From Candidatus Caldarchaeum sp. (GTDB lineage: Archaea > Thermoproteota > Nitrososphaeria_A > Caldarchaeales > Caldarchaeaceae), in assembly GCA_038844785.1 (NCBI GenBank), contig JAWBRA010000023.1:1-26630 (forward strand): 26,630 nucleotides of DNA, in the 5' to 3' direction. Position 1 is the stretch's first letter; each line of letters begins with the position of its first letter. The translations under genes and the position numbers were made by a program. Below are positions 318 to 13,630 of this stretch, piece by piece. The notes below the pieces were generated by a model. It was given only the letters and a program-made list of their open reading frames with translations, made no database searches and was not told the origin of the DNA.

Positions 318-458
318 CTAAACATACTTCAACGGGTTTTTGTCGAAAGTGTCTTTGCAGGCTTTGCCGCAGAAATAGTACGTTCTGCCCTCATAGGTTG
401 AGGTGTGTTTAGCTGTCTTCTCGTCTACGTTCATTTTGCAGACGGGGTCGATGGCCAT
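318..458 (-). CDS. YHS/TRASH-domain small protein (46 aa), probable metal (copper) binding
   Basis: From ATG at 458: MAIDPVCKMNV...YEGRTYYFCGKACKDTFDKNPLKYV matches the DPVC...Y-G-xYYFC-xx-C...F...P YHS pattern. The longer ORF start at 548 overlaps trxB and is rejected. Confidence 0.9.
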   Translation of the reverse strand: MAIDPVCKMNVDEKTAKHTSTYEGRTYYFCGKACKDTFDKNPLKYV

Positions 459-519
459 GGTTTTACAGATTTCGCCGGGGTTTTTATGTTTTAATAGCGA
501 GTCGCTGCAGCTGCAGTTG

Positions 520-1473
520 ATGGAGGCTGAGTACGACGTCATAGTCATAGGCGGTGGGCCGGCGGGCTACACCGCCTCAATATACACCTGCAGAGCGGGT
601 TTGAAAACCCTTCTGATAGCAGGCCTCGAAGCCGGAGGCCAGCTTATGCTAACACGTGAGGTTGAGAACTATCCCGGGTTCAGCAAAGGCGTGATGGGGC
701 CTGAGCTGATGGAGAGCATGCGTCAACAGGCCGAAAACCAAGGAGCTGAAATAATCTACGACAACGCCACCTCGGTCAACTTCAAAACATACCCGTATGA
801 AGTCTATGTAAACGAATCTTGTTACACGGCTAAAGCCGTCATCGTGGCGACGGGGGCTTCTCCTAAATGGCTGGGACTCGAATCTGAGAAACGTCTCCTA
901 GGCCGAGGGGTTTCGAGCTGCGCTACCTGTGACGGGCCCCTTTTTAAGGGCACAGAAACTTCGGTCGTTGTTGGTGGAGGGGATTCGGCGATGGAGTATG
1001 CGCTTTTCCTCGCCAACATCGTGTCGAAGGTTGTGGTCGTCCATCGACGCGACAGCCTTAGGGCTTCGAAGGTTTTGGCTGAAAGAGCTCTGAACAATCC
1101 GAAGATCACTTTCGTCTGGAACAGCGTTGTGGTCGACATTCTCGGCGAGAAAAAGGTTGAGGGCGTGAGAGTCAGGAACCTTAAAACGGGTGAGATAACG
1201 GACATAGGCTGCCAGTCGGTGTTCATAGCGATAGGACACAAGCCAAACACCGAGATATTCGCAGGCCAGCTGGAGGTTGACGAAGAAGGATACATCAAGG
1301 TTTACGACAGAATGTGCACAAGCGTTCCAGGCGTTTTCGCGGCAGGCGACGTTCATGACAAAAGGTATAGGCAGGCTGTCACGGCTGCGGGGTTCGGATG
1401 CATGGCAGGCATGGAGGCTATCTGGTTTATTCAAACAGGCGGGCCTGAGAAGCTCAGACAGGCTCGAGGCTAA
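520..1473 (+). CDS. trxB: Thioredoxin-disulfide reductase
   Basis: FAD motif DVIVIGGGPAG right after ATG 520, GGQL, ENYPGF, active-site CATC, NADPH motifs GGGDSA and HRRxxxR, and C-terminal TSVPGVFAAGD. Confidence 0.95.
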   Translation: MEAEYDVIVIGGGPAGYTASIYTCRAGLKTLLIAGLEAGGQLMLTREVENYPGFSKGVMGPELMESMRQQAENQGAEIIYDNATSVNFKTYPYEVYVNESCYTAKAVIVATGASPKWLGLESEKRLLGRGVSSCATCDGPLFKGTETSVVVGGGDSAMEYALFLANIVSKVVVVHRRDSLRASKVLAERALNNPKITFVWNSVVVDILGEKKVEGVRVRNLKTGEITDIGCQSVFIAIGHKPNTEIFAGQLEVDEEGYIKVYDRMCTSVPGVFAAGDVHDKRYRQAVTAAGFGCMAGMEAIWFIQTGGPEKLRQARG

Positions 1474-1778
1474 ACTTCGACGAATATCTCGCCGTTTATC
1501 ACGGATACCTTGTAGGTCGGCAACGGCTTTGTGGCCGGAGGATTGAGCACCTCGCCGTTGTCAAGCCTAAAACGTGACAGATGCACTGGGCATGTGATTG
1601 TTTTGTCGACGACCAAACCGTTTACGAGCTCGGCGTATTCATGTGTGCATATATTGCTGACAGCATACAGGCTGCCCATGTGTCTCAGAACCAAGATCTG
1701 GATGCCTTCGTTTTCAACTACCTTCGTGTCGCCTTCCGCAAGCTCTTCATCCCTGCAGACACGCAGTAGCTTTGCCAC
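1470..1778 (-). CDS. Soluble Rieske [2Fe-2S] ferredoxin
   Basis: CTH and CPVH ligand motifs, FRLDNGEV...PPATKPLPTY tail; 102 aa with no membrane anchor. Confidence 0.92.
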   Translation of the reverse strand: MAKLLRVCRDEELAEGDTKVVENEGIQILVLRHMGSLYAVSNICTHEYAELVNGLVVDKTITCPVHLSRFRLDNGEVLNPPATKPLPTYKVSVINGEIFVEV

Positions 1779-1813: not shown

Positions 1814-2308
1814 TCAATGGCAACGAAGCCGTGGGAAAAGCTCTTTCATCTCTTGGATGTCTTCGGATGACTTTCCCGTTAACACCAGCTCAATTGTTCT
1901 CGAAGTCTCGGTGCATGGGATTCGCAATGTTACTTGGGTTATGGGATGTCGTCGGAAACCTCTCTTTATTGTTTTTGACACGATGTGGGCGTCGTGGCCG
2001 TTTATCCGCGTCATCTCATAGCTTCCAACCTGAAAACTCGTGTGCTTAATCCCTTTTCTGCATCTGACATCCAGCTCCAACACATCTCCGTTGATGAGGT
2101 TGACTACGTAGTAGCTTGCCGACCCGTCTACAACCCATCCGACGTCTTTGACTACAGCTGTGTAGTTGACATCTGCGGGTGCGTCGCCGATCTTAACTGT
2201 CCAGCCTTCAGGCACGTGTATGTAAAGCCATGTGAACCTGCCCATCAAAAGGTTGCCCGTTGCTAGCTCAAACTCTCTGCCCGCCATCATCCAGCGCCTC
2301 CTATCCAA
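1814..2308 (-). CDS. Hypothetical protein (~160 aa, beta-rich, ends in Cys-His)
   Basis: Open frame fills the gap between neighbours and starts 2 nt after the upstream stop. No family recognised; start uncertain by a few codons. Confidence 0.75.
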   Translation of the reverse strand: MDRRRWMMAGREFELATGNLLMGRFTWLYIHVPEGWTVKIGDAPADVNYTAVVKDVGWVVDGSASYYVVNLINGDVLELDVRCRKGIKHTSFQVGSYEMTRINGHDAHIVSKTIKRGFRRHPITQVTLRIPCTETSRTIELVLTGKSSEDIQEMKELFPRLRCH

Positions 2309-2310
2309 AG

Positions 2311-2697
2311 CTAACCGATCTTAAACCAAAGCCTTCTCACGACACAGTTCAAAGCAGCCGCTTTAATATCTTCCAATGTTTCGTCTATGTTTCGGCCTAT
2401 TTTTACGGGTTTTTTGTTGGCTATGGCGTAAAACCCGCGGCCTAGCCTGTGTCTGAAGGAAAGCCAAACACCGAGGGGTGATAATGCGTGAACAAGCCTA
2501 ACTTCAAACCCTTTCGCCGCCAAAGCCTTTACAACAGCTTCAACCCTTCCAAACTCTTCCAGAAAATCATCAGGGTATTCTTTGAGCTGGTCGTAGGGGT
2601 TCCATAATCCGGCGATATGGGCTGGGTTGCATAAACTCTTGCATCTTGACATGAACGCCGTGGGAAACACGCCCACCACGAGAATTTTCTCCCGCAA
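2311..2697 (-). CDS. Hypothetical putative thioredoxin-like protein, paralog A
   Basis: TTG at 2697 removes the overlap with the divergent gene and lies about 28 nt from a TTATTA box. Contains CKSLC, EYPDD and SPLG..SFRHR motifs; the last two are shared with 2762-3169. The fold is inferred. Confidence 0.7.
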   Translation of the reverse strand: MREKILVVGVFPTAFMSRCKSLCNPAHIAGLWNPYDQLKEYPDDFLEEFGRVEAVVKALAAKGFEVRLVHALSPLGVWLSFRHRLGRGFYAIANKKPVKIGRNIDETLEDIKAAALNCVVRRLWFKIG

Positions 2698-2761
2698 CTC
2701 GGTTGTTAGGAGGTACAGAAAGACTAATAAGCGTTTAACACAAATGTTTATCCGAGTAGGT
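2698..2761. promoter_or_regulatory. Compact divergent promoter region
   Basis: 64-nt gap between divergent TTG starts. AT-rich boxes CTAATAAG (~2725-2732, TTATTA on the minus strand) and TTTAAC (~2734-2739) each lie about 25-30 nt from a start. Confidence 0.45.
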
Positions 2762-3169
2762 TTGGAGAAACCCGTCAAAGTAGAGATTTATGAGATTTAT
2801 CCCGTCACATTAGGCCACTGCCCACACTACAATCTTCTCTCGGCTGAGATGTACGCGGCTGGGGCGGAGTTCTGTGAACTGTCAACCCAAGCGGCGGAAT
2901 ACCCCGACGACGTACTCCAGAACCATTCCAAGGCCGCTGAGGTGGTCAGGTTTTTGAGACAGTCGTTCAAAGGCCGTCGGATGAACGTTGAGGTGGAGAT
3001 GGTCAACCTGATATCGCCCATGGGTTTCCTAAAAAGTCTCCGCCACCGTATCTGGAGAAGGCCTGCCGTGGTGGTAGATGGAAAAAAGGTTTCCGACGGC
3101 TTCATCGACTGGGATGGGTTGAAGCTGGCGGTGGAGCAGGCGTGGCTGAGTCGGAGAAATACCGTTTAG
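2762..3169 (+). CDS. Hypothetical putative thioredoxin-like protein, paralog B
   Basis: From TTG 2762: beta strand KVEIYEI, HCPH, EYPDD, SPMG..SLRHR, then PAVVVDGKKV, which resembles the cis-Pro beta-hairpin of thioredoxin/glutaredoxin folds. Confidence 0.75.
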   Translation: MEKPVKVEIYEIYPVTLGHCPHYNLLSAEMYAAGAEFCELSTQAAEYPDDVLQNHSKAAEVVRFLRQSFKGRRMNVEVEMVNLISPMGFLKSLRHRIWRRPAVVVDGKKVSDGFIDWDGLKLAVEQAWLSRRNTV

Positions 3170-3447
3170 GCTCGAGGACGGCGGGACTCAAACAGGCTCT
3201 ACGCGACTTTTTCTTCGGAGCACTAATCCTAGGTCTTTACCAGAACGTTCTCCGTCTCAAGCTGAAGTACGACGACATATTTTTCTCCCTTATCATGGGC
3301 GAGTTCCTAGGCATACCGCTTCTCGGAAACTACTTCACGCTCAGGATAATTCCCTACCTGATGCCCGACCTTGAGAAAGCGAGGATGAGGCTTTTGAGAG
3401 ACGTCGACCTGCTGGAGCTTCTGCGCGAAGGGCCTGCGGTTCACTAG
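3142..3447 (+). CDS. Small CstA/ArsA-associated protein (cory-CC-star-like), copy 1
   Basis: Motif DDIF..IMGEFLGIP....YFTLRIIPY resembles the D.F....E.LG.P.P..YYTLELLP core of cory-CC-star proteins. Clear paralog of 5404-5685. Confidence 0.75.
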   Translation: MAESEKYRLGSRTAGLKQALRDFFFGALILGLYQNVLRLKLKYDDIFFSLIMGEFLGIPLLGNYFTLRIIPYLMPDLEKARMRLLRDVDLLELLREGPAVH

Positions 3448-4433
3448 CTTGGAGTAAACTCATAAACATCTTTAATTACGTTGTTTAATGCTTCTAAGCC
3501 TCTTATCTCGGTAGGATACATTCGGATATAGCCTTTGACATGCTCTCCAAGGTCTCTGTTTATTATGTCAAGGTAGTGATGCTGTTCCTCCCACTTTGAC
3601 CGTAAATATCCCGTCGGGTCGGAAGATACATCCGCCCGGTCCAAGACCATGTTTACAAATATCCCCCCTACCGGAATGTTGAAAGCCTGCACCATGTTTA
3701 TGAACCTCTTCACGACAGATATTGGAAGAGACTCGGGTGTCGTAACGAAGTAGAAGAGTGTCTTTGAAGGGTCTGTCAAAGCCTCACGGGTTTTTGTGAA
3801 TTTTTCGTAAAGTGATAAAAGGTCTGCCACTACAGGGTCTTTTTTGATCTCCTCCATAACCTTCTCCTTCCTGACGGAAAGCTTAAGCCTGTACTCTTGA
3901 GCCTCCCTGCGTGACTGCATCATTCTCGCAAGCCACAGCCCGTACAGCTTGCTCAACCCGATTAACCTGACTGCGTTGGCAACCGCTGCCGTGTCGAACA
4001 CAACCACATCATATTTCCCGCCTTCGCCAACTATGATGTCCATTACTTTGTCAAACATCGCAGATTCTTGGAAAGCGGGGTTTGTTGTAGCTATTTGTAT
4101 GAAGGGCTCGGGGTTTATAGGTATCTCAGCCCATTTGAAGAACTCTTTCAGTCTAGCAGCCATGTTGGACCTGTATCTTTCGATGAGATCGTTTATCTCC
4201 ACCTCTATCGCTGTCAGCCCTTCAACCCCTTGCACGTTTTTGAAAGTGCCTCCCGAAAGGTCTTGCATAAAAAGGCTGCTCAACGAGTGTACTGGGTTCA
4301 GGCTTGCCAGAAGCACCCTCTTCCCTTGACGGGCTATCTCAGCGGCCATGGCGCCGGCTGACACAGTTTTTCCCACACCCCCTTTACCGCCTACGAAGAT
4401 GTACTTTGCTTTAGCTAGTTCTTTCACGTCCAT
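3444..4433 (-). CDS. ArsA/GET3 (TRC40) family ATPase, degenerate catalytic motifs
   Basis: Deviant Walker A GKGGVGKT; switch I SLNPVHSL; switch II DTAAVAN; VTTPE and GIFVN motifs. GGAGG lies upstream of ATG 4433. Confidence 0.92.
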   Translation of the reverse strand: MDVKELAKAKYIFVGGKGGVGKTVSAGAMAAEIARQGKRVLLASLNPVHSLSSLFMQDLSGGTFKNVQGVEGLTAIEVEINDLIERYRSNMAARLKEFFKWAEIPINPEPFIQIATTNPAFQESAMFDKVMDIIVGEGGKYDVVVFDTAAVANAVRLIGLSKLYGLWLARMMQSRREAQEYRLKLSVRKEKVMEEIKKDPVVADLLSLYEKFTKTREALTDPSKTLFYFVTTPESLPISVVKRFINMVQAFNIPVGGIFVNMVLDRADVSSDPTGYLRSKWEEQHHYLDIINRDLGEHVKGYIRMYPTEIRGLEALNNVIKDVYEFTPS

Positions 4434-5407
4434 TCCACACCTCCGCTCATAAGAGGCTGGGAAACCGCCGCTATGCCTTCAATGCCCCTAGGCTCTTTCG
4501 GAAACATAGGGATGATAGATATCACAAGCTTTCCAAACTTGTCCATGATCTCGGTCATGCACTCCCGCTGCTGCTTCAGCCTGTTTGCTATGAAGGGGGA
4601 GGGGTTTGAAGCCATCTCGGGCGGCAGAACCTTGTTGACCACTATCCCCGCCAGCTCTAAGCCAACCGACTTAAACATCTCCAAAGCTTTCTCAGTGTCT
4701 ATTATGGACATTCGTTCCGGAGTTATGACCATGAAGAAGGCAGCCTTATTCCTGTCTTTCATGACGTCGGTGAATGTGGTCAACCTGTTCTTGATGTCAT
4801 ACAGCTCGTTCAACACCTCGTCCTCTTTAACAAGTTTCTCCCCTTTGAGCCTGCGGGCTATTTCATCATACTCCCTTGCTTTCTCACGGGCTTCGGTGAG
4901 CTTTTCAACCCAAGCGCTGAGAATGTCCGCCATGGTGACCATCCTTATCCCGTGTCCGAAGGGAGGCATGTCGAAGACGTAGAGACCGTAACGTCCCTCG
5001 GCGAGATAGCTTGCCATGGCGTCGTACGTGGCTGACTCATACATCGCAGGCTCTGCAACAGAGCTGTCTATGTACGATTCTATCTCAGGAGGGATCTCTG
5101 TTTTGTACATGTCTCTTATTTTTTGTTTTATCTCGTTGATGTAAGCTGATATTTTCGAGTCGGCGTCGATCTCCACCACGAAAAGGTTTGGGATAATCTC
5201 CACCTCTCCTTTTCCGAAGATGTTTCGTTCGAATATGTCGCTAAGCGACGCTTGGGGGTCTGTGCTGAAGCAGAGGACCTTTTTCGAGCTGCATACGGCG
5301 TAGGAGAGGGCGGCGCTGCAGGTCGTCTTACCTAAACCTCCTTTTCCCGCGAAGATAACCATCTTAAGCTCGGGCTTTGACGCGAGAAACTCGCTAAATC
5401 CTTTCAA
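4424..5407 (-). CDS. ArsA/GET3 (TRC40) family ATPase, intact catalytic motifs
   Basis: GKGGLGKTT, STDPQASLSD, DMPPFGH, VITPE and IVVNKV. TTG start at 5407 overlaps the upstream TGA stop (TTGA coupling). Confidence 0.93.
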   Translation of the reverse strand: MKGFSEFLASKPELKMVIFAGKGGLGKTTCSAALSYAVCSSKKVLCFSTDPQASLSDIFERNIFGKGEVEIIPNLFVVEIDADSKISAYINEIKQKIRDMYKTEIPPEIESYIDSSVAEPAMYESATYDAMASYLAEGRYGLYVFDMPPFGHGIRMVTMADILSAWVEKLTEAREKAREYDEIARRLKGEKLVKEDEVLNELYDIKNRLTTFTDVMKDRNKAAFFMVITPERMSIIDTEKALEMFKSVGLELAGIVVNKVLPPEMASNPSPFIANRLKQQRECMTEIMDKFGKLVISIIPMFPKEPRGIEGIAAVSQPLMSGGVEWT

Positions 5408-5685
5408 CCGTAAATCACGTCCGTGAAGTCTCTCTCCCTGTAGAACCTGTGTTTCCAAGCTTTGACGTTAGGTATCGCGTAGGGGAGAAGACGTAGTGAG
5501 TAGTATGGTGGTAGTATTGGGAAGCCGAGCATGTCTCCCATAATCATCAGGATAAACATGTGCTCCATGTACATCCTTGTCTTGAGTATGGATGTTACTT
5601 GCTGGTGTAATGCAACGCCGTAGAACATGTCGCCCACGGCTTTTTTGAGGTTGCCGAGAAAGCCTCCCTTCTTTCCCTCAGTCAC
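5404..5685 (-). CDS. Small CstA/ArsA-associated protein (cory-CC-star-like), copy 2
   Basis: Motif EHMF..IMGDMLGFP..PPYYSLRLLPY; located between cstA and the ArsA gene, the known context for this family. Confidence 0.8.
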   Translation of the reverse strand: MTEGKKGGFLGNLKKAVGDMFYGVALHQQVTSILKTRMYMEHMFILMIMGDMLGFPILPPYYSLRLLPYAIPNVKAWKHRFYRERDFTDVIYG

Positions 5686-5704
5686 GCCAGTCTATACAAT
5701 AACT

Positions 5705-5714
5705 TATTTAAAAA
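5705..5714 (-). promoter_or_regulatory. TATA-like box, possible internal promoter for the small protein + ATPase genes
   Basis: Minus strand GGGAAATATTTTTTAAATAA lies about 20-38 nt upstream of GTG 5685. Confidence 0.45.
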
Positions 5715-5740
5715 ATATTTCCCTAAAGCGTTGGAGCTTC

Positions 5741-5757
5741 AAAAAAGGATGGGGGGT
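5741..5757 (-). terminator. Pyrimidine/oligo-T terminator after cstA
   Basis: Minus strand CCCCCCATCCTTTTTT follows the cstA stop, typical of an archaeal oligo-U terminator. Confidence 0.45.
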
Positions 5758-7527
5758 TTAGGCTTTTACCTCGACTTTTACAGCCCTCCGGTAGCCTCTG
5801 ACGAAATAGATAGCCATCGCCAAGCCTATGAGGAACATTATAACCCCGACAGCTGTTGAGAAACCGTTGATGCCTTGGACGGCGATGTTACCGCCAACGT
5901 TTTTCAGAATGTTTTGAGTTGGATGGAGAAGCTTCGCCCCGATAGTTGCGTCGGCGAAGACATATGTCTGGTACAATATGGCTGCAAGCGTTGTAAACAT
6001 CATGAAAATGCCCGGTATCGTGGAGTACCAGTGGAACCGTTTCTGCATGTAGAGGAATAGGCCTACGATCAGGAGCGCGAACCCGGCGAGCAGCTGGTTT
6101 GTTCCTCCGAAGTAAAGCCATATGTTGGTCCAGCTCCCTGTGAGCACAAAGGCTATTGGGAACACAAAGCCCAGAATCGATGCTATGATTTTGTTGCCCA
6201 GGATCGAAAGGGGTGTGCCGCCGAAGACCTCGGCCATCGTCACCCTCCAAAACCTTCCCAGTATCGTTAGAATTGTAACCGCCATTCCAACCATATAATT
6301 GGCGAAGAATATGCTCAGGAATGGTTTGACTGCATCTCCTCCAAGGAAGGGCGATGTCAGGGTTGTGGCCCCTAACACGAAGTTACCTGGAGAAGCTCCG
6401 CCAGCAACGGTTAGCAAGGGAATCGATACCCATGCAGCTAAGGCGGTCAGACCGACCAGGTTCTCAGTAATCATGGCTCCTGCGCCGACTGGCCTTATGT
6501 CTGTCTCCACGTCTATCTGCTTGGATGTTAGCCCTGTGCTGACAAGGCTGTGCCAGCCCGAGATGGCGCCGCAGGCTATGGTGACGAAAAGCGCCGGCCA
6601 GAGAGGTCCAACGGTGAAAACCTCAGCCCACCCTCTAAACACAGGCACCTGAATCTTAACTCCCGTCGCCGGCGAAACTAACGCCCCCAAAGTCAGAAGC
6701 AGGACAGCAGGTATCAGCGAGTAGTAGGCTATGTAGTTCATGGGTGTTATGAGCCTGGGCATAGGCAGGAGGGCTCCGAGTATCAGTATGGCCACCAACG
6801 GAACCAGCCAGTAGGTGTATGGGTTGGCTGCTGCAGCCACGCCTGGCGGAGGGGGTGTGAAAACGAATGTTCCGGGCGGCGGGACTGCTGAGAGGACTGT
6901 GGCGCCCAAAGCTATGCCTATTGCCTGGAGTATTACGGCGAGGACCGTCACCGGGGCTACGCTCATCTTCACTTTAAACAGCAGATGGCCTGTTATGACA
7001 GCGGCTATCACCAGAACCAGCAGCGACCAGAACGAGCCTGGGAAAGCGTTCATGACGGTTGCGACCACGAACAGGAAGGCGGCGTTTATCAGCAGAAGGT
7101 AGAAGAGCAGGAAGCCGAGGAGAAGCTTACGTGCGGTCGGGCCCAACAGCTCATAGGCCATAGGTCCAAACGATCTTCCCTCCTTCCTTACAGACAGGAA
7201 CATCGCACTGTAGTCCTGAACCCATCCGATGAACAGAGCGGCGAACACTATCCAGAGGAAAGCTGGAAGCCATCCAAAAGCAAGCGCAGCGGTACCGGGG
7301 CCTATTATAGGACCCAACGCCGCGATGCTGTTCCACTGAAAACCGTAGAGGACAAACCGTCCAACCGGAAAGAACTCAACGCCGTCGGCGTACATGTGGG
7401 CCGGGGTAGGCCTAGCTCGGTCAGGGCTCCAGATCTTGCGGTCGACAATTTTGCTGTAAACAGAGTATGCGGCAAGAAATACCACAAGACCTATCGCCGT
7501 AAAACCTAGAGGAGTGTCTAGAACCAT
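5758..7527 (-). CDS. cstA: Carbon starvation CstA-family membrane transporter
   Basis: TPAH...DGVEF, SIAALGPIIGP, GWLPAFLWI and FVTIACGAISGWHSLVSTG.TSKQI motifs, FGGTNQLLA, and many TM segments. ATG 7527 chosen because a TTATATAA box sits about 28-35 nt upstream; the alternative start is 7548. Confidence 0.93.
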   Translation of the reverse strand: MVLDTPLGFTAIGLVVFLAAYSVYSKIVDRKIWSPDRARPTPAHMYADGVEFFPVGRFVLYGFQWNSIAALGPIIGPGTAALAFGWLPAFLWIVFAALFIGWVQDYSAMFLSVRKEGRSFGPMAYELLGPTARKLLLGFLLFYLLLINAAFLFVVATVMNAFPGSFWSLLVLVIAAVITGHLLFKVKMSVAPVTVLAVILQAIGIALGATVLSAVPPPGTFVFTPPPPGVAAAANPYTYWLVPLVAILILGALLPMPRLITPMNYIAYYSLIPAVLLLTLGALVSPATGVKIQVPVFRGWAEVFTVGPLWPALFVTIACGAISGWHSLVSTGLTSKQIDVETDIRPVGAGAMITENLVGLTALAAWVSIPLLTVAGGASPGNFVLGATTLTSPFLGGDAVKPFLSIFFANYMVGMAVTILTILGRFWRVTMAEVFGGTPLSILGNKIIASILGFVFPIAFVLTGSWTNIWLYFGGTNQLLAGFALLIVGLFLYMQKRFHWYSTIPGIFMMFTTLAAILYQTYVFADATIGAKLLHPTQNILKNVGGNIAVQGINGFSTAVGVIMFLIGLAMAIYFVRGYRRAVKVEVKA

Positions 7528-7553
7528 TTTTCGAGCAAAATAGAACATATAAC

Positions 7554-8162
7554 TTATATAAGCTTTTCTAGAACGCTCAGCAATTCTTTTATCCCATCAG
7601 CATCCCCGGGCGTAAAGTAAACCTGAAGGTTAGGCAGTCTCTTACCAACCGAAAGCAGTAAAACGTTTTGCAACCCCCTTATCCTTTCGATTAACGTGGA
7701 GACTTTTTCCTGTGGGACATCCCCCTCGTCTGAGACTATCAAATAATCATCGACCTCGGTTATCTTATTACCCCATCTAGACGCATAGCGTTCGGCTTGC
7801 GTGCCCTTTTTAACGAATGTCAGCGACGCCGAAGGGGTTTTTCTTGTTCTAGCCCTTAGGATAGCTAGGTCGCTTCTCCCCATCAGCTTTGAAACAACGT
7901 ATGACAAAGGGTTTGACCAAGACTGGACTCCGATAACTACTGAGAACTCAGCCAGCTCACCCATATGCCTGCATGAGAGAACCGCGGTCGTGGTTCCCCT
8001 TCTCCCGTCGACAACTTTTCCACCCGCTGCTGAAACAGCTTCCATAACGGCTTTGAAAAGATGTGCGACACGTCTTCTGCTGGCCACCGTCCCAGTAGTA
8101 AAGAAAAAGAGGAATGCTAAGGCGATCAGCATTATTGAGAGCGTGGGATCCAGCTCCAGCAT
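7554..8162 (-). CDS. Hypothetical protein with single N-terminal TM helix
   Basis: 202-aa ORF with hydrophobic LSIMLIALAFLFFF followed by basic RRR; TTTAAA box about 30 nt upstream. Confidence 0.8.
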   Translation of the reverse strand: MLELDPTLSIMLIALAFLFFFTTGTVASRRRVAHLFKAVMEAVSAAGGKVVDGRRGTTTAVLSCRHMGELAEFSVVIGVQSWSNPLSYVVSKLMGRSDLAILRARTRKTPSASLTFVKKGTQAERYASRWGNKITEVDDYLIVSDEGDVPQEKVSTLIERIRGLQNVLLLSVGKRLPNLQVYFTPGDADGIKELLSVLEKLI

Positions 8163-8245: not shown

Positions 8246-10216
8246 TTGCTCCTCTGGAAGCCTTCCGACGATGTTGTTGAAAAAGCCAACATGACCCGTT
8301 TCATAGAGTACGCCAACGGGAGAAACGGGCTTGACATAGACCCGTACAAGGACAGAGCATATTTCCAGCTCTACGACTGGTCCGTTGAAAACATCCCTGC
8401 CTTTTGGGATACTGTCTGGAGTTTTGTAGAGGTTAAAGCATCAAAACGATATAACCAAGTTGTTGATGATCTCAACAAGTTTCCAGGAGCCTCATGGTTT
8501 ATCGGTGCAAGACTCAATTTTGCCGAAAACCTTCTCAAGAGAAGGGATGACAAAACCGCCCTAATCGCTGTCAGAGAAGACGGCATTCTCAGAAAGCTGT
8601 CGTACCGGGAGGTCTATCGTAAGGCTGCTGGCATCGCAGGTGGTTTACGGGAGGTGGGTGTCGGCGTGGGTGACAGGGTCGTTGGCTACATGCCAAACAC
8701 CGCCGAAACATGCTTAGCCATGCTTGCTGCTACTTCCCTTGGAGCGGCATGGTCTTCCGCCGGCACCGAGATTGGCGTCGACGCAGCTGTCGACAGGTTT
8801 GAGCAAGTCAGCCCTAAAGTTATGTTCACCGTCGACGGCTACTACTACAGAGGGAAAAGCTTCGATGTCTTAGAGAGGGTGGCGAAAATAGTGAAGAGAA
8901 TCCCGTCAATAAAGAGTGTCATCGTCGTCCCATATCTCCGCGACAGGCCCAAGATAGATTTTATCGACAAAGCCGTATCCTACGAGGATTTTATAAGCGG
9001 AGGGAATGATTTCATCTTCGAGCAGGTTGACTCGTCGACGCCGGTCTACATAATGTTTTCTTCAGGGACGACTGGCAAGCCAAAGTGCATGGTTCAGTCA
9101 GTAGCTGGAATACTTGTCAACCATCTAAAGGACCTCGTAATCCACAGCGACCTAAAGCCTGACGACGTGATAACATACATTACATCGCCGAGTTGGATGA
9201 TGTGGAATTGGATGATGACTTCTCTGGCAGTCGGGTCGACCATACTCCTTTATGACGGCGACCCAGACTATCCCGACTGGAAAACTATGTGGAGGCTTGT
9301 TGACGAGCATCAGGTCACATTCTTCGGCTGCAGCGCGAGCTACATCAACTATCTGAGAAGCGTGAACGCCTCGCCTCGGAATAGTTTCGACCTCTCATCG
9401 CTTCGTGAAATATCTCAGACAGGTTCTCCGCTGTCGGCCGACGGCTTCGAATGGGTATACCGGGAAATAAAGAAAGACCATCACTTCAACTCCATATCTG
9501 GAGGAACAGACATCAACGGATGTTTCGCTATCGGCAGCCCAATTCTTCCCGTTTATGCTGGCCAGCTGCAGTCTCCTGCTCTTGGAATGAAGATAAAATG
9601 CTACGACGAAAACGGTGAGCCTGTATATGATAAAACGGGTGAGCTTGTTTGCGAAGCGCCCGCGCCTTCGATGCCGCTTTACTTCCTGAACGACCCGGGG
9701 GACGAAAGATACCTAGACTCCTACTTCAGGTTCTACACCCATAAACGCGTGTGGAGGCACGGCGACTTCGTAATATTCCACAGCGACACCGGAGGCATCA
9801 CTTTCTTAGGGAGGTCCGACGCGGTTCTGAAGCCGTCGGGCGTAAGGATAGGAACCGCTGAAATCTACAGCATAGTCGAGAGCTTTAAAGAGATTGCGGA
9901 CAGCATCGCCGTGGGCCAGAGCTGGAAGGGAGACCAGAGGATTATCCTCTTCGTTAAAATGGCTAAAGATTATGAGCTGACCGAAGAGTTGAAGGAGAGG
10001 TTGAAAAAAGAGCTTAGGGAGAGAGCCTCGCCAAGACACGTCCCAGCCATGATAATCGAAGCGCCTGACATCCCCTACACATACAATATGAAGAAGGTGG
10101 AGATAGCTGTGTCGAACATTATCAACGGTAGGAAGGTCGTTAACAGAGACGCGTTGGTAAACCCTGAAAGCCTAGACTTCTACGAGAAAATCCTACCGCT
10201 TCTCCAACAGGAGTAG
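8246..10216 (+). CDS. acsA: Acetoacetate--CoA ligase (acetoacetyl-CoA synthetase)
   Basis: LWKPS start, ARLNFAENLL, AMP-binding FSSGTTGKPKC, WMMWNW, SISGGTDI, WRHGDF, GRSDAVLKPSGVRIGTAEIY, and KKVEIAV...NPESL. Confidence 0.93.
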   Translation: MLLWKPSDDVVEKANMTRFIEYANGRNGLDIDPYKDRAYFQLYDWSVENIPAFWDTVWSFVEVKASKRYNQVVDDLNKFPGASWFIGARLNFAENLLKRRDDKTALIAVREDGILRKLSYREVYRKAAGIAGGLREVGVGVGDRVVGYMPNTAETCLAMLAATSLGAAWSSAGTEIGVDAAVDRFEQVSPKVMFTVDGYYYRGKSFDVLERVAKIVKRIPSIKSVIVVPYLRDRPKIDFIDKAVSYEDFISGGNDFIFEQVDSSTPVYIMFSSGTTGKPKCMVQSVAGILVNHLKDLVIHSDLKPDDVITYITSPSWMMWNWMMTSLAVGSTILLYDGDPDYPDWKTMWRLVDEHQVTFFGCSASYINYLRSVNASPRNSFDLSSLREISQTGSPLSADGFEWVYREIKKDHHFNSISGGTDINGCFAIGSPILPVYAGQLQSPALGMKIKCYDENGEPVYDKTGELVCEAPAPSMPLYFLNDPGDERYLDSYFRFYTHKRVWRHGDFVIFHSDTGGITFLGRSDAVLKPSGVRIGTAEIYSIVESFKEIADSIAVGQSWKGDQRIILFVKMAKDYELTEELKERLKKELRERASPRHVPAMIIEAPDIPYTYNMKKVEIAVSNIINGRKVVNRDALVNPESLDFYEKILPLLQQE

Positions 10217-10219
10217 ATT

Positions 10220-10768
10220 ATGTCTGGGTTTGAACGTTTCGCAATAGGTTTGCGTATTCGAAGCCTTTTTCAAAACCCTTACAGACTTTTGTCCGGCATC
10301 GGCCTGTCCCGCGGTCATGTCTTCTTAGATGTCGGGTGTGGGACTGGGTTTCTTGCCCTGCCGGCGGCATCCATCGTTGGAGCAGATGGAGTTGTTTACG
10401 CGGTTGACGTTGAAGAAGACTACCTGCGGGAGGTTGAACGTAGGGCTGAAAGGCTTGGCTTGAAAAACATCGTTACCGTTAAAACACAGGCAGAGAACTT
10501 GGATGGGGTTCCTGAACATTCGGTCGACAGGGCCATCTTCATGCTAAGCCTTCACCACGTAGCCGACAGAAACAAGGCTTTTCTCCAAGTCAGGAGAAAG
10601 CTGAAGGAAGACGGTTTGATGATGGTGTTCGATCCTATAGCGTCGCGTCTGTTTGGACATGGAACAGATCCCCAAAAGGTTTTGGCTCTCCTAAAGCAAA
10701 CAGGTTTTACGCAGGTGTTTTTCAATAAAGGAGTTTTGTTCTGGCGGGCGATAGCACGCCCTGTTTAA
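10220..10768 (+). CDS. Class I SAM-dependent methyltransferase (UbiE-like)
   Basis: Motif I FLDVGCGTG, VYAVD, SLHHV.D, LKEDG; starts 3 nt after the ligase stop. Confidence 0.9.
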   Translation: MSGFERFAIGLRIRSLFQNPYRLLSGIGLSRGHVFLDVGCGTGFLALPAASIVGADGVVYAVDVEEDYLREVERRAERLGLKNIVTVKTQAENLDGVPEHSVDRAIFMLSLHHVADRNKAFLQVRRKLKEDGLMMVFDPIASRLFGHGTDPQKVLALLKQTGFTQVFFNKGVLFWRAIARPV

Positions 10769-12255
10769 GCTCCAAAATATTTTAGCTGCACCGTCATCCT
10801 AGCTATGTTTAACAATGCTGCGTATCCCACCATCGGCTCAAGACCCATCGATTTTTGGTAGTCGGTTTGATCCTGCCAAGCGCCGGCGTTCACGAGCAAG
10901 ACTCCGCGATAGCTGGTGTTTACGGTTACGTGAATATGGCCTGTCTGCAGCAGGTGAGGCTGTTCAGAAATTACAAGCCTATCCTCTTCAGTGGGCATTA
11001 GCTGTGTGTTTTCTCCGTACACCGGTGCGAGATGTCTGAACCTGAGCATTGAAGCAATCACCCTAGGGGCTGTTTCCTTAAGGTTGCTGTAGGAGACATC
11101 TGGCAGCGATTGAATCAGTTCATCGAGGCCTTGACCATGGTAGGCTAAAATTCTCCTGCCGTCAAAGACCAAAGTCGCAGGGTTAGACACGAAGTGAACC
11201 TTTCTCTTCGCATTGACTATTTCACGATAACGTGTCTGGAGAGGGGGCTGAGGTATAGCTTTTCTTACCGGCTCATGGTTCCCTGGGCTGAAAACTATCT
11301 CAATTCTCTCCGGTATCTCGGCTAACAGGTCGGCGGCCTGTTTCAGCTGGTCTTCAACGTTCTTTACAAGCAAGTCGTTCTCCTGTCCAGGATAGACCCC
11401 AACCCCCTCCACCAAGTCGCCGTCTACAACTATGTGTGAGATGCGTTTCACAACACCGTCTCTTCCACGGCTGAGCCAGTCGAGAAATTTTTCGAAAAGG
11501 TCTTTTCTGAAATTCTTGCTTCCAACGTGGACGTCTGAAATCAGGCAAACGTATGCTTCAGGTGCTGGTGGAAGGTTTTTATAATTCATCTCCTCGACGT
11601 CAGGGTATATTATTTCCCTTAAAACATAGAGGTTGCCGGCTCTCCTAACCTTCAACCCTAAGACAACGTCATTCAACAACTCAGCTGTCTGCTTGTAAAG
11701 CTGTTGGTTTTTTCTTGGCACAACCACTGTGAGAACTCCTGACGGGTCGTCAACCTCAACCGCCACAGAGTTTTTACGCTCCCGCTTACCCTGCACCATA
11801 ACCGCCAAATAAACCTCTTCACCATCTTTGACAGAGAAGGCCTCCGAGACAGGGATGAAGTTTAATCTCCTCCTCTCAAGAAGCCGGCGTATCGAGTAGT
11901 ACCTGTTCTGAAAATAGTGGCGGAACTCTTCGACGCTACCCTCTATTCTTTGGTTCTCCTCCACTGAGTTTTGGATCATGATGTTTGGAGTGTAAACCAT
12001 GGTTGTTTCTTCAACAACTTGTCTACTGTTGTTTTGTGTTTTTTCTAGAACTGGCTGGGTTCTCACTATGTGTTCGGCGTCTATTATGGATAGCTCTGGG
12101 TCGTGTTTTTTTATGTATTCGATTGTCCTCATAAGGTCTTCGACAGGTGTTTCACTTTCCTCAAAGATTTTCAACGCCTTCTCAGTGATTTGATATCCCT
12201 CGCTCAAAGCTATTGAGATGAGCTCGCGGTATAGCTGACGCCCCCTGCCCAGCAA
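10765..12255 (-). CDS. polD1: DNA polymerase D small (proofreading exonuclease) subunit DP1
   Basis: OB-fold region (FQNRY, VDDPSG) followed by phosphoesterase motifs SDVHVGS, GDLVEGVGVYPGQ, PGNHE, YHG, RHLAP.YG, GHIH and WQDQTDYQ. Confidence 0.94.
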   Translation of the reverse strand: MLGRGRQLYRELISIALSEGYQITEKALKIFEESETPVEDLMRTIEYIKKHDPELSIIDAEHIVRTQPVLEKTQNNSRQVVEETTMVYTPNIMIQNSVEENQRIEGSVEEFRHYFQNRYYSIRRLLERRRLNFIPVSEAFSVKDGEEVYLAVMVQGKRERKNSVAVEVDDPSGVLTVVVPRKNQQLYKQTAELLNDVVLGLKVRRAGNLYVLREIIYPDVEEMNYKNLPPAPEAYVCLISDVHVGSKNFRKDLFEKFLDWLSRGRDGVVKRISHIVVDGDLVEGVGVYPGQENDLLVKNVEDQLKQAADLLAEIPERIEIVFSPGNHEPVRKAIPQPPLQTRYREIVNAKRKVHFVSNPATLVFDGRRILAYHGQGLDELIQSLPDVSYSNLKETAPRVIASMLRFRHLAPVYGENTQLMPTEEDRLVISEQPHLLQTGHIHVTVNTSYRGVLLVNAGAWQDQTDYQKSMGLEPMVGYAALLNIARMTVQLKYFGA

Positions 12256-12337: not shown

Positions 12338-13630
12338 ATGGTTTCGATAGCTGGTGCTGAGGCAGGCATACTTTTTAGGAAACATGGTTACACGCCACAC
12401 TACGCTGAATATGTTGAAGACCCAGTTACAGGCGACGAGGTTGTTGTCATGGCTGACCCACACAGCCGCAGATCGGCGTTCATCTACAGCCCGCGAAAAA
12501 AGAAAATCTTGTGGGAGTTCAAGGTTCCGGGGATCAGCATCTCTGCAAACCCACATATAGCACGCATAGTTGTTGAAAGAATCTCAGGGTTCAAAGCAAG
12601 GCCAGGCGATGTTCTATGCGCAGACCGTGACAACAGGTTCATCGTGGTTGACAGGGCTAGGAAAATTGTACGCTGGAGCTACAGGCCTGCTGACGCTGTT
12701 TGGTCCCACGACCTCATGCCAACAAAAGATTTTCAAGACATGCTGACGACAGATTATGGAAACGGCTATCTGAGAAGGATAAACTATGAGGGGGAGGTTA
12801 TCTGGAGCATTAACTTGGGAAAAGGCCTCGCCAAGCTGTCAAGGATTCCTGGAAATGTTCCCAGTGGCGTTCATGGCAACAGCTATGGAGGCGACATACT
12901 GGCAGCCGTCAACCAGAGGACAAGGGGCGTTTACGAAATCTCTGAGGAGAGGGGGGCAGTCGCCTGGTCATGTCCGCCGCCTAAAGGTTCGAAAAACTGT
13001 TTTTTCACGCTGAAGCCACACTCGGCCATTCGTCTTGGTCTGGCTGAGTTAGGCGGCAGCCTCACCGTGTTCAACCACGAGGCTGGCGGAGGCTTTGTCG
13101 CCGTTGACAAGGACTGTAGGCCGAGATGGGGTGTGATGAAACCTTTCACCATCGTAGGAGAGGAAGAGATGTACAGGCCTTCCTCGCTGGGTCTTTATGA
13201 GACTACTCACGTCTTCCACACACCCCATGGCTTTCTGGGAATAATAGACTGGGACGGGCCCGACTACTCGACGGTCTACGAGTTATATGAGCCTCCGGCT
13301 AAAACATCGCTTTACTGGGTTCTGGCATGGCAGAGGAGATCTTCTAGCTTGCCGGAGTTTTTGGACCCGCCTGTTGAGACAGGTGAATGGCGGGAGACGG
13401 CTTTCCAGGCCGTTAACCATGGTCCCAACAGGCTGAAGATTGATTTCTACACAACCCTCAGCCCTGTTGCAGACACGTCGGATACGTCGGCATGGGGTAG
13501 GGCTGGGTCCATGACCGTTGAAGCAGGAGGCGTGAGTGAAAACGTGCTCAACGGCTTTTCATCCGTCCGCGTGGCCGTTTCATCGGAAGGTGAAACCGTC
13601 TACACGCTTTACGTCGTCAACAGAATTTAA
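12338..13630 (+). CDS. Hypothetical protein, probable beta-propeller plus C-terminal beta domain
   Basis: 430 aa with recurring blade-like units ending K/E-I/V-x-W (KILWEF, IVRWSY, EVIWSI, AVAWSC, RPRWG); no signal peptide evident. Confidence 0.75.
   Translation: MVSIAGAEAGILFRKHGYTPHYAEYVEDPVTGDEVVVMADPHSRRSAFIYSPRKKKILWEFKVPGISISANPHIARIVVERISGFKARPGDVLCADRDNRFIVVDRARKIVRWSYRPADAVWSHDLMPTKDFQDMLTTDYGNGYLRRINYEGEVIWSINLGKGLAKLSRIPGNVPSGVHGNSYGGDILAAVNQRTRGVYEISEERGAVAWSCPPPKGSKNCFFTLKPHSAIRLGLAELGGSLTVFNHEAGGGFVAVDKDCRPRWGVMKPFTIVGEEEMYRPSSLGLYETTHVFHTPHGFLGIIDWDGPDYSTVYELYEPPAKTSLYWVLAWQRRSSSLPEFLDPPVETGEWRETAFQAVNHGPNRLKIDFYTTLSPVADTSDTSAWGRAGSMTVEAGGVSENVLNGFSSVRVAVSSEGETVYTLYVVNRI

Follow-up and report, generated by a model that had tools for sequence, protein, structure and literature searches.

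In Escherichia coli the loci cstA-ybdD and btsT-yjiX each code for a CstA-family carrier and a small DUF466 protein, and to our knowledge neither locus carries an ATPase. ArsA proper has conserved metalloid-binding cysteines, Get3 has a CxxC pair that bridges its dimer through zinc, and the mycobacterial proteins BagA and BagB are a pair of Get3-like ATPases for which we know of no link to CstA. Here we describe a locus of Candidatus Caldarchaeum sp. in which a CstA-family carrier stands together with two Get3/ArsA-family ATPases. The locus consists of nine open reading frames (ORFs) at positions 1814-8162 of a stretch of 26,630 nucleotides (nt), referred to below as the window, and these code for the carrier CstA, a membrane-anchored protein (Y202), two small proteins (X1 and X2), two ATPases (Ars1 and Ars2), two predicted thioredoxin-fold proteins (RdxA and RdxB) and a PsbP-like protein with a Cys-His tail (U164).

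Clusters of cstA with cstX, coding for a protein of about 90 amino acids (aa) with one transmembrane segment (TMS), and with arsA homologues coding for single-domain proteins of about 330 aa were reported by comparative genomics in 2010, as was cstY, coding for a protein of about 210 aa with one TMS, in five archaea (Castillo and Saier, Int J Microbiol 2010:187373, PMC2963123). Thermococcus kodakarensis is named there as a carrier of the module. Adjacent ArsA pairs (cluster 15 of that study) were given for Pyrobaculum arsenaticum and Symbiobacterium thermophilum, pairs of CstX paralogues were described too, and it was proposed that ArsA energises CstA with CstX as a linker, evidence for the co-evolution of CstA, CstX and ArsA being presented (PMC2963123). 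In the excerpted text of that study cst operons hold no ars genes, thioredoxin is discussed for ars operons only and the ATPase pairs of cluster 15 are said to work without CstY. The window locus shares with these clusters CstA, a CstX pair, CstY, paired single-domain ArsA homologues and the energiser idea. It differs in that the thioredoxin-fold family and the PsbP-like Cys-His protein are not mentioned with cst operons in the same excerpts, and in that a CstY homologue is found here upstream of cstA in the paired-ATPase loci of one family of relatives, f14. A preliminary description of this DNA, made from the letters alone, had put the system forward as a candidate undescribed one, which goes too far since the cstY-cstA-cstX-arsA core and the energiser idea are already in PMC2963123. 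As far as the excerpted text goes, CstA, CstY, the CstX pair and the ATPase pair are the published predicted cluster, and the additions made here are the thioredoxin-fold (Rdx) family, U164 and an argument from co-loss. No functional study of the module was found among the papers that the literature searches listed.

Analyses of gene neighbourhoods and of genome content indicated that CstA, CstY, the CstX pair, the ATPase pair, U164 and Rdx are inherited, rearranged and lost together. A CstX match was found in 20 of the 41 relatives surveyed and 20 loci were fetched. All nine families were present on one contig in six loci (L016, L017, L018, L019, L025 and L026), in three gene orders of which one is that of the window; the order is X1-RdxB / RdxA-U164 / Y-CstA-X2-Ars1-Ars2 in L019 and Rdx / Y-U164 / CstA-X2-Ars1-Ars2-X1 / RdxB in L025 and L026. 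Locus L015 contained all but RdxA. Loci L020 and L022 showed the order CstA-X2-Ars1-Ars2-U164-Y, with RdxB next in L020 only and with X1, and in one case both Rdx genes, located elsewhere. In the closed genomes of family f14 (1.8-2.5 Mb) the genes for a CstY-like protein, CstA, X2, Ars1, Ars2, X1 and U164 are colinear and a thioredoxin-like ORF with a CxxC, at a distance of about 1 kb, is a homologue of Rdx (probability 98.5%, E 2.6e-15), while the three loci of family f3 carried only X-X2-Ars1-Ars2 and a CstA of 37% identity. In G027 and in some of the f14 genomes Rdx is remote from the module. The preliminary description had treated the nine genes as one conserved unit, and this was borne out by the six loci with their three orders, which go beyond chance: the genes at 1814-3447 and the gene at 7554-8162, whose absence from the company of cstA and arsA in other genomes would have spoken against it, co-occur with them.

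A single fixed set of 251 genomes from the phylum was searched with profiles of the accessory families; these genomes are kin, so that no statistic is attached to the counts. Matches were obtained in 38 genomes for X, 31 for Y, 29 for U164 and 38 for Rdx (25 of these at E<1e-8), and 22 genomes had X, Y, U164 and Rdx together. U164 was located at most 3 kb from an X gene in all 24 genomes that have both, and it was not found in 14 X-positive genomes. Two genomes, G099 and G200, gave a strong Rdx match and none for X, and in G052, which had no X match, U164 and Y lie side by side where a contig ends.

Five X-negative relatives, 93-99% complete and two of them of the same genus, gave no CstA match (0 of 5) and no full-length ArsA match, the matches being confined to the P-loop region and covering up to 130 of 305 profile positions. 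Since these five relatives lack both, the ATPases are gained and lost with CstA, and the archaea concerned can do without any Get3 homologue. Only remnants of U164 were left in two same-genus genomes. One of them is in G009, a closed genome of the same genus and one of the five X-negative relatives, where a lone truncated U164 remnant of 113 aa lies at 10673-11014 on the minus strand of locus L045; cstX, cstY, Rdx, cstA and a full-length ArsA homologue were not found in G009, from which the module was evidently deleted. The remnant adjoins two small ORFs that by eye resemble a HEPN/nucleotidyltransferase pair.

Table 1. Features of the cstA locus in the window
Feature	Position	Strand	Description
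U164	1814-2308	-	Extent as in the ORF list; predicted cytoplasmic PsbP/Mog1/DcrB-like beta-rich protein
RdxA	2311-2697, open frame up to 2778	-	Predicted thioredoxin-fold paralogue A, motif CKSLC
RdxA/RdxB intergenic	2698-2743		Short divergent region between RdxA-U164 and RdxB-X1
RdxB	2744-3169, listed ORF from 2627	+	Predicted thioredoxin-fold paralogue B, GHCPH(Y/F) and distal EFC
X1	3142-3447	+	CstX-type small protein copy 1, 101 aa, beside Ars2
Ars2	3444-4433	-	Get3/ArsA-family ATPase, 329 aa, P-loop intact, switch I Asp to Asn
Ars1	4424-5458	-	Get3/ArsA-family ATPase, 344 aa, canonical motifs
X2	5404-5685	-	CstX-type small protein copy 2, 93 aa, between cstA and Ars1
CstA	5758-7548	-	CstA-family carrier, 596 aa, polytopic
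Y202	7554-8162	-	CstY-type, 202 aa, N-terminal membrane anchor and domain of about 170 aa

The nine neighbouring ORFs were all found where the preliminary description had placed them (Table 1), and the gene overlaps agree with it, X2 and Ars1 overlapping by 55 nt and Ars1 and Ars2 by 10 nt. RdxB and X1 overlap by 28 nt, the convergent Ars2 and X1 genes share 4 bases and the end of the Y202 gene is 5 nt from cstA. The divergent region between the two Rdx genes contains, by direct reading, the AT-rich stretch ACTAATAAG and is a putative promoter region. Pfam and NCBIfam together named only the two ArsA_ATPase proteins (221 and 186 bits) and CstA (330 bits), and U164, RdxA, RdxB and Y202 had no match in either collection. 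BLASTP comparison revealed that three components occur as paralogue pairs, as had been claimed: X1 and X2 (30% identity, E 2e-18), RdxA and RdxB (37% over 71 aa, E 5e-10) and Ars1 and Ars2 (27% identity, E 1e-42). A fourth pair made up of U164 and Y202 was considered and rejected at the level of sequence (BLASTP E 0.69, hhalign probability 0.05%).

Both ATPases belong to the TRC40/GET3/ArsA family and have the deviant Walker A P-loop. Ars1 scored 221.1 bits for PF02374 and 204.8 bits for TIGR00345, and Ars2 scored 185.6 and 189.1 bits, the cut-offs being 24.3 and 135. They are the only PF02374 genes above cut-off in the host genome, which is 95.5% complete. The motifs GKGGLGKT, STDPQASL and FDMPPFGHG of Ars1 in the window are kept, the last as FDM(P/M)P(F/H)GH, in all 20 orthologues that cover the region. 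Alignment of Ars2 with its orthologues revealed that switch I reads NPVHSL, with Asn in place of the catalytic Asp, in 21 of 21, where Ars1 has TDPQASL, so that the asymmetry of the pair proposed in the preliminary description is seen in the sequences themselves. Switch II of Ars2 is degenerate as well, being FDTAAVANAVRL in the window protein and FD(T/M)AAVANAVRL, or FDTAPVAHTYRL in family f3, in the orthologues. The catalytic switch I Asp that each subunit of a Get3 homodimer carries is thus found in Ars1 (TDPQ) and replaced in Ars2 (LNPV). Exchange of the corresponding Asp for Asn in yeast Get3 stops hydrolysis and leaves ATP binding; because Ars2 carries the matching Asn, Ars1 and Ars2 may by analogy assemble as a heterodimer in which one site is hydrolytic, comparable to the unequal halves of ArsA.

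Among solved structures, those closest to the two proteins are of the archaeal Get3 type (3zq6, E 4e-46 for Ars1; 3ug6, E 5e-41), followed by ArsA, and the window pair shares with Get3/TRC40 the families PF02374 and TIGR00345. It differs from Get3 in that its members are diverged paralogues that occur as an obligate pair, the catalytic Asp of one being replaced by Asn, in having no CxxC zinc motif in either sequence, and in that ATPases of the window type were found only where CstA is present and are missing from close relatives. With the ArsA-ArsB(-ArsD) pump the locus shares an ATPase of the Get3/ArsA fold in two non-equivalent halves, here two genes, beside a secondary carrier, together with a small protein of predicted thioredoxin fold, a fold that ArsD also has. 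It differs from that pump in that the ATPases are single domains with no conserved thiol site and the carrier is CstA, not ArsB or Acr3. Neither Ars1 nor Ars2 reached ArsA proper (TIGR04291, 92 bits at a cut-off of 650), being single domains and not fused proteins of about 580 aa, and the metalloid-binding cysteines of ArsA were not found in them: Ars2 of the window and 20 of 21 Ars2 orthologues are free of Cys, and Ars1 orthologues have 0 to 4 Cys that are not conserved. The Pfam families ArsB and ArsD had no match in the whole genome, which extends the absence of arsB and arsD noted earlier for the window. The pair resembles BagA/BagB in consisting of two adjacent diverged Get3-like ATPases; however, it scored only 29-46 bits against NCBIfam cut-offs of 400 and 521, so that Ars1 and Ars2 are not members of those families.

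The carrier gene product matched PF02554 with 330.1 bits (cut-off 27), has many hydrophobic segments and is a member of the CstA family, single-copy in the host genome by a search of that genome. As it reached only 151 of the 1188 bits required by NF011590, the model of the E. coli pyruvate/proton symporter CstA, the substrate of the E. coli protein is not transferable. By default, and by analogy with the characterised CstA and BtsT proteins, a small carboxylate or a peptide would be the substrate. Divergent from cstY-cstA, at 8246-10216 on the plus strand, lies a gene for a 656-aa AMP-binding enzyme with an acetyl-CoA-synthetase N-terminal domain (ACAS_N), syntenic in four same-genus loci (L013, L014, L016 and L017) and with no synteny seen outside the genus; this is a possible hint that the carrier imports a short carboxylate. 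Like the E. coli loci cstA-ybdD and btsT-yjiX, the window has a CstA-family carrier gene followed by one for a small conserved protein, and unlike them it has ATPases, and X1 and X2 have no DUF466 match.

Analysis of the Y202 sequence by the Kyte-Doolittle method with a window of 19 residues revealed one hydrophobic segment, at residues 1-29 (score 2.20), in agreement with the membrane-anchored protein proposed earlier. Because the motif SRRRVAH directly follows this anchor, the remaining domain is probably cytoplasmic. Y202 fits the published account of CstY (about 210 aa, single TMS, archaeal cstA operon), a match by description and not by sequence homology, and a homologue of it is encoded upstream of cstA in family f14 (hhalign probability 97%, E 7e-11). 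A word-index search with Y202 returned 9 proteins. The Y202 family had no sequence match in the PDB, and one of 20 CstY-family members matched CCDC47 (PF07946) weakly, with E 0.13.

X1 and X2 share the conserved core G..LG.P.L..YY.LR.LPY and fit the description of CstX, also a match by description, in being about 90 aa long, adjacent to cstA or an arsA homologue and equipped with one hydrophobic stretch. Each has one hydrophobic peak of 1.4-1.5 (1.46 for X2), which is borderline for a membrane helix, and the hydrophobic stretch of CstX is central, not C-terminal, and holds Asp/Glu and several Pro residues. The C-termini are VH in X1, where the final His is invariant in 14 of 14 sequences, and YG in X2. 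No Pfam match was found for either at E<=0.1, DUF466 included. Against NF041419 ('cory-CC-star') they scored 27.6 and 30.3 bits at a cut-off of 80, and they are related to this family without being members of it. Two longer matches, P0193 and P0194, were considered as natural CstX fusions and set aside, as they look like over-extended ORFs with Arg-rich low-complexity N-termini. Both have a CstX-like C-terminus, neither had a match in the local copy of Pfam, and both carry the precomputed label PF25952.1, a family that the local copy does not contain; a recent Pfam family may already cover CstX.

The structure of U164 was predicted with AlphaFold2 from an alignment of 28 rows, with a mean predicted local distance difference test (pLDDT) of 88.3. 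The best Foldseek matches of the model were Tsi3 (E 5.1e-4) and PsbP (1.5e-3), within a range of E from 5e-4 to 2e-2, and VIA-align superposed it on the cyanobacterial PsbP 2xb3 with Z 10.3 and a root-mean-square deviation (rmsd) of 2.9 A over 125 of 164 residues, and PsbP, Mog1, LpqN, DcrB, SciW, Tsi3 and similar proteins made up its first 19 rows. A feature-based search of the ESM Atlas agreed with the PsbP-like fold. On the model, then, U164 is a PsbP/Mog1/DcrB-like protein, assigned by its predicted fold and not by a sequence family match. All 28 aligned sequences, among them those from family f14 and from an Armatimonadota bacterium, share His105, Cys132, Cys163 and His164 without exception; the protein ends in RCH, and the Cys-His tail noted earlier is therefore part of this invariant set. 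The model has a hairpin made up of the strands at 105-116 and 121-132, which should bring His105 opposite Cys132, and together with these two residues the C-terminal Cys-His could make up a candidate Cys2His2 site.

A word-index search with U164 returned 33 proteins. Among the word-index matches of U164 and Y202 those that are named are called hypothetical, and none has a Pfam domain except an ArsA-labelled fragment, P0183. Scanning of genome contigs for U164 gave 12 loci, all of Caldarchaeales type, and the bacterial homologue P0181 used as a query had no match in metagenome contigs. P0183, a metagenomic protein of 257 aa, starts in one frame with the last two-thirds of an Ars2-type ATPase, continues into the beginning of U164 and is either a natural fusion or the result of a missed stop; a fusion, if real, would argue for contact between Ars2 and U164. 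At the contig end of L052 (genome G011) an ORF of 334 aa (8269-9273, plus strand) joins an unrelated N-terminal part to a second C-terminal half of U164, including the Cys-His tail, and may have arisen by duplication or as a chimera in assembly. In the f14 loci L047 (8649-9506, plus strand) and L054 (10096-10944, minus strand) the space between U164 and the Rdx-like gene is occupied by a conserved ORF of about 285 aa. Prediction of a complex of U164 and X1, made without controls, gave a score of 0.00 and a mark of 0.32 and is evidence neither way.

The description of the two remaining proteins as redoxin-like stood as regards the fold and had to be corrected as regards the extent of the genes. 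The listed ORFs are over-long, their homologues starting to align near residues 25-50. The most likely start of RdxA is TTG 2697, giving a protein of 128 aa that matches the length of the representative P0001 (128 aa, identical to RdxA across the aligned region), and that of RdxB is ATG 2744 or TTG 2762. An AlphaFold2 model of RdxB built on an alignment of 99 rows (pLDDT 88.9, predicted template modelling score 0.83) has the order beta-alpha-beta-alpha-beta-beta-alpha. VIA-align placed it nearest to a designed thioredoxin (Z 9.2, rmsd 2.5 A over 84 residues), the next rows being thioredoxins and KaiB/SasA and most of the 50 rows having the thioredoxin fold; Foldseek gave only thioredoxin-fold rows, with a best E of 0.025. 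These comparisons assign the modelled RdxB to the thioredoxin fold. The Rdx family comprises 234 clusters at E<=1e-3 among 1.84 billion representatives, and 5 of 99 members match Thioredoxin_3 and 7 of 99 DUF1525 in Pfam. Searching the PDB with a profile of the Rdx alignment gave rows at chance level (best E 0.39).

Most members of the wider Rdx family have HCxHCE after strand 1, at the canonical position of the thioredoxin CxxC. Neither window copy has the canonical CxxC, and a redox-active CxxC after strand 1 was accordingly not found in RdxA or RdxB. RdxB has a conserved GHCPH(Y/F), read as CPHY in the window copy, and a distal Cys (EFC); RdxA has CKSLC, and several same-genus orthologues of it are without any Cys at the motif. 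The label of thiol protein given in the preliminary description does not fit RdxA, which is not a conserved thiol protein. A likeness of Rdx to ArsD was considered and dropped as unsupported: neither Rdx matched ArsD (PF06953) or any other Pfam family at E<=0.1, and ArsD did not occur in the Foldseek or the VIA-align list of RdxB, each of 50 rows, which returned the generic thioredoxin fold. Next to U164 are genes for a YHS-domain protein (318-548, minus strand), a thioredoxin-reductase-like flavoprotein (403-1473, plus strand) and a Rieske ferredoxin (1470-1778, minus strand), of which the reductase and Rieske genes hold the same position in L017 and L032; these two could provide the thioredoxin-fold proteins with reducing equivalents. 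An ORF of 430 aa (12338-13630, plus strand) had no Pfam match at E<=1e-5, and elsewhere the window is ordinary, with RtcB, a branched-chain amino-acid ATP-binding cassette (ABC) transporter, a pyridoxal-phosphate enzyme, an acyl-CoA dehydrogenase and a thiolase-like gene.

When metagenomes were scanned with a CxxC subgroup of the Rdx family, 350 stretches were confirmed and 80 of these were retained. In all 26 loci of at least 6 kb cstA is directly downstream of Rdx, and 20 of the 26 go on with Y on the opposite strand, at least two X genes, Ars1 and Ars2, the other six ending within or just after cstA. Over the 80 kept loci CstA was found in 67, Y in 29, X in 27, Ars1 in 24, Ars2 in 22 and U164 in none. 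Because this distant clade has Rdx and no U164, membership of the module is widespread for Rdx and narrower for U164. The X copies of the metagenomic loci end in MF, IF or GL and none in His or Cys-Cys, and in the loci examined the X1 type with a terminal His was found in lineages that also have U164. In the Rdx-cstA clade (L056-L135) three and sometimes four CstX paralogues occur, one type with a conserved ...EHDYHLEGL tail, and L093 carries two X-X-Ars1-Ars2 sets and two CstA genes on one contig. A flanking gene of FolC type was above cut-off on a 575-kb contig, which is probably bacterial.

Contigs from metatranscriptomes (three runs, two studies) match the locus at 92-99% over 16 to 28 of 30 bins, and include pieces of 1,680 nt spanning Ars2-Ars1-X2 and of 1,731 nt within cstA. 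Metatranscriptome libraries can hold DNA and such contigs do not show single transcripts, so the pieces are consistent with expression in close relatives and with no more than that.

Tentatively, and with somewhat less than an even chance of being right in our judgement, we read the locus as one self-contained CstA module in which an ATP-dependent accessory assembly drives or gates transport through CstX. Ars1 and Ars2 would form the heterodimer with one hydrolytic site, each ATPase would pair with the CstX that flanks it (order X2-Ars1-Ars2-X1), and the assembly would dock on the cytoplasmic face of CstA beside the membrane-anchored CstY. Binding and hydrolysis of ATP, relayed by CstX, would drive or gate an otherwise secondary carrier, as ArsA acts on ArsB, and U164, with its candidate metal site, might act together with the thioredoxin-fold proteins as an input to regulation or assembly that depends on thiols or on metal.

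Several points weigh against this reading. No experiment on any member of the module was found in the literature, and the contacts between the components are predictions and not physical observations. E. coli CstA and BtsT are proton symporters that run without an ATPase, so that an energiser is not needed by the CstA family. The position of CstX as a bridge is a guess, because its hydrophobicity is borderline. The roles of U164 and Rdx are the weakest step: the cysteines of RdxA have been lost in some same-genus orthologues, in 8 of the 25 genomes that match Rdx strongly the gene is not next to the module, and since U164 is absent from the 80 metagenomic loci and f3 has only X-X-Ars1-Ars2 and CstA, these proteins would be accessories and not core.

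An alternative that we regard as unlikely is that the ATPases serve the biogenesis of the carrier, the Get3-like heterodimer being an ATP-dependent holdase or targeting factor for CstX or for segments of CstA, CstY its membrane receptor and the PsbP/Eag-like U164 an additional holder of hydrophobic helices, with transport itself proton-coupled. The archaeal Get3-type structures that are nearest to both ATPases point in this direction, as do the fold relatives SciW and EagT6 of U164, which according to their PDB titles have effector transmembrane domains bound, and the conserved and moderately hydrophobic core of CstX. As a client, however, CstX would have its hydrophobic stretch in the centre, with Asp/Glu and Pro, and below the usual threshold for a membrane helix, and it would be unusual for one or two small clients to have an ATPase pair permanently assigned to them. 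The five relatives that are 93-99% complete and lack a full-length Get3 indicate that Get3 is not needed for general tail-anchored insertion in these archaea, the CxxC that bridges Get3 through zinc is absent and Ars2 is free of Cys, and sequence comparison did not confirm that Y202 resembles CCDC47 (1 of 20 members).

It appears very unlikely to us that the locus is a relay for a thiophilic substrate in the manner of ArsD-ArsA-ArsB, in which Rdx and U164 would bind a metal, a metalloid or reactive sulfur or selenium and pass it by way of the ATPases to CstA for export or import. The four invariant Cys and His residues of U164 would suit such a relay, and so would the CxxC of the wider Rdx family, the invariant terminal His of X1, the weak match of X to a family named 'cory-CC-star' and the YHS-domain and thioredoxin-reductase-like genes that neighbour the locus in the genus. 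The relay would nevertheless have to pass through ATPases with no ArsA-type thiol site, Ars2 being Cys-free and Ars1 having 0 to 4 Cys, and in a genome where the Pfam families ArsD and ArsB are unmatched; both window copies of Rdx have lost the CxxC, and the metagenomic clade has Rdx and no U164. That U164, RdxA, RdxB and perhaps Y202 are mere neighbours of a five-gene cstA-cstX-arsA core, with no functional part, might be read from the reduced f3 loci, from the distance of Rdx to the module in some f14 genomes and in G027 and from the two genomes with a strong Rdx match and no X, but this is hardly credible and largely refuted by the linkage counts, since the linkage outlasts at least three rearrangements and extends across distant lineages, all families are lost along with CstA in same-genus genomes, and U164 stays within 3 kb of X wherever both occur (24 of 24 genomes).

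The preferred reading, of a module in which the ATPases drive or gate CstA, may be carried further. A pseudo-twofold cytoplasmic cap made up of X1/X2, Ars1/Ars2, RdxA/RdxB with U164, and CstY might render the carrier ATP-driven and thiol- or metal-gated, which we consider quite unlikely in this full form. If it were true, the combination of an ArsA-type energiser and a small adaptor would amount to a general, modular means of powering unrelated carriers that differs from ABC and P-type pumps, and the only Get3-family proteins of these archaea would serve transport and not tail-anchored insertion.

The jobs known for Get3/ArsA proteins are the powering of arsenite pumps and the delivery of tail-anchored proteins, and a role for a nutrient carrier, predicted in 2010, would be a third. 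For such a role the locus provides a fuller parts list, consisting of a carrier, an anchor, two adaptors, an active and a degenerate ATPase, a candidate metal-binding PsbP-like protein and predicted thioredoxin-fold partners. It also provides a genetic argument, in that in this archaeal order the ATPases are found only where CstA is found and some close relatives are without a Get3 homologue. The pattern of co-loss bears on the reach of Get3 tail-anchor targeting in archaea and makes the role of a Get3-like ATPase for a carrier directly testable.

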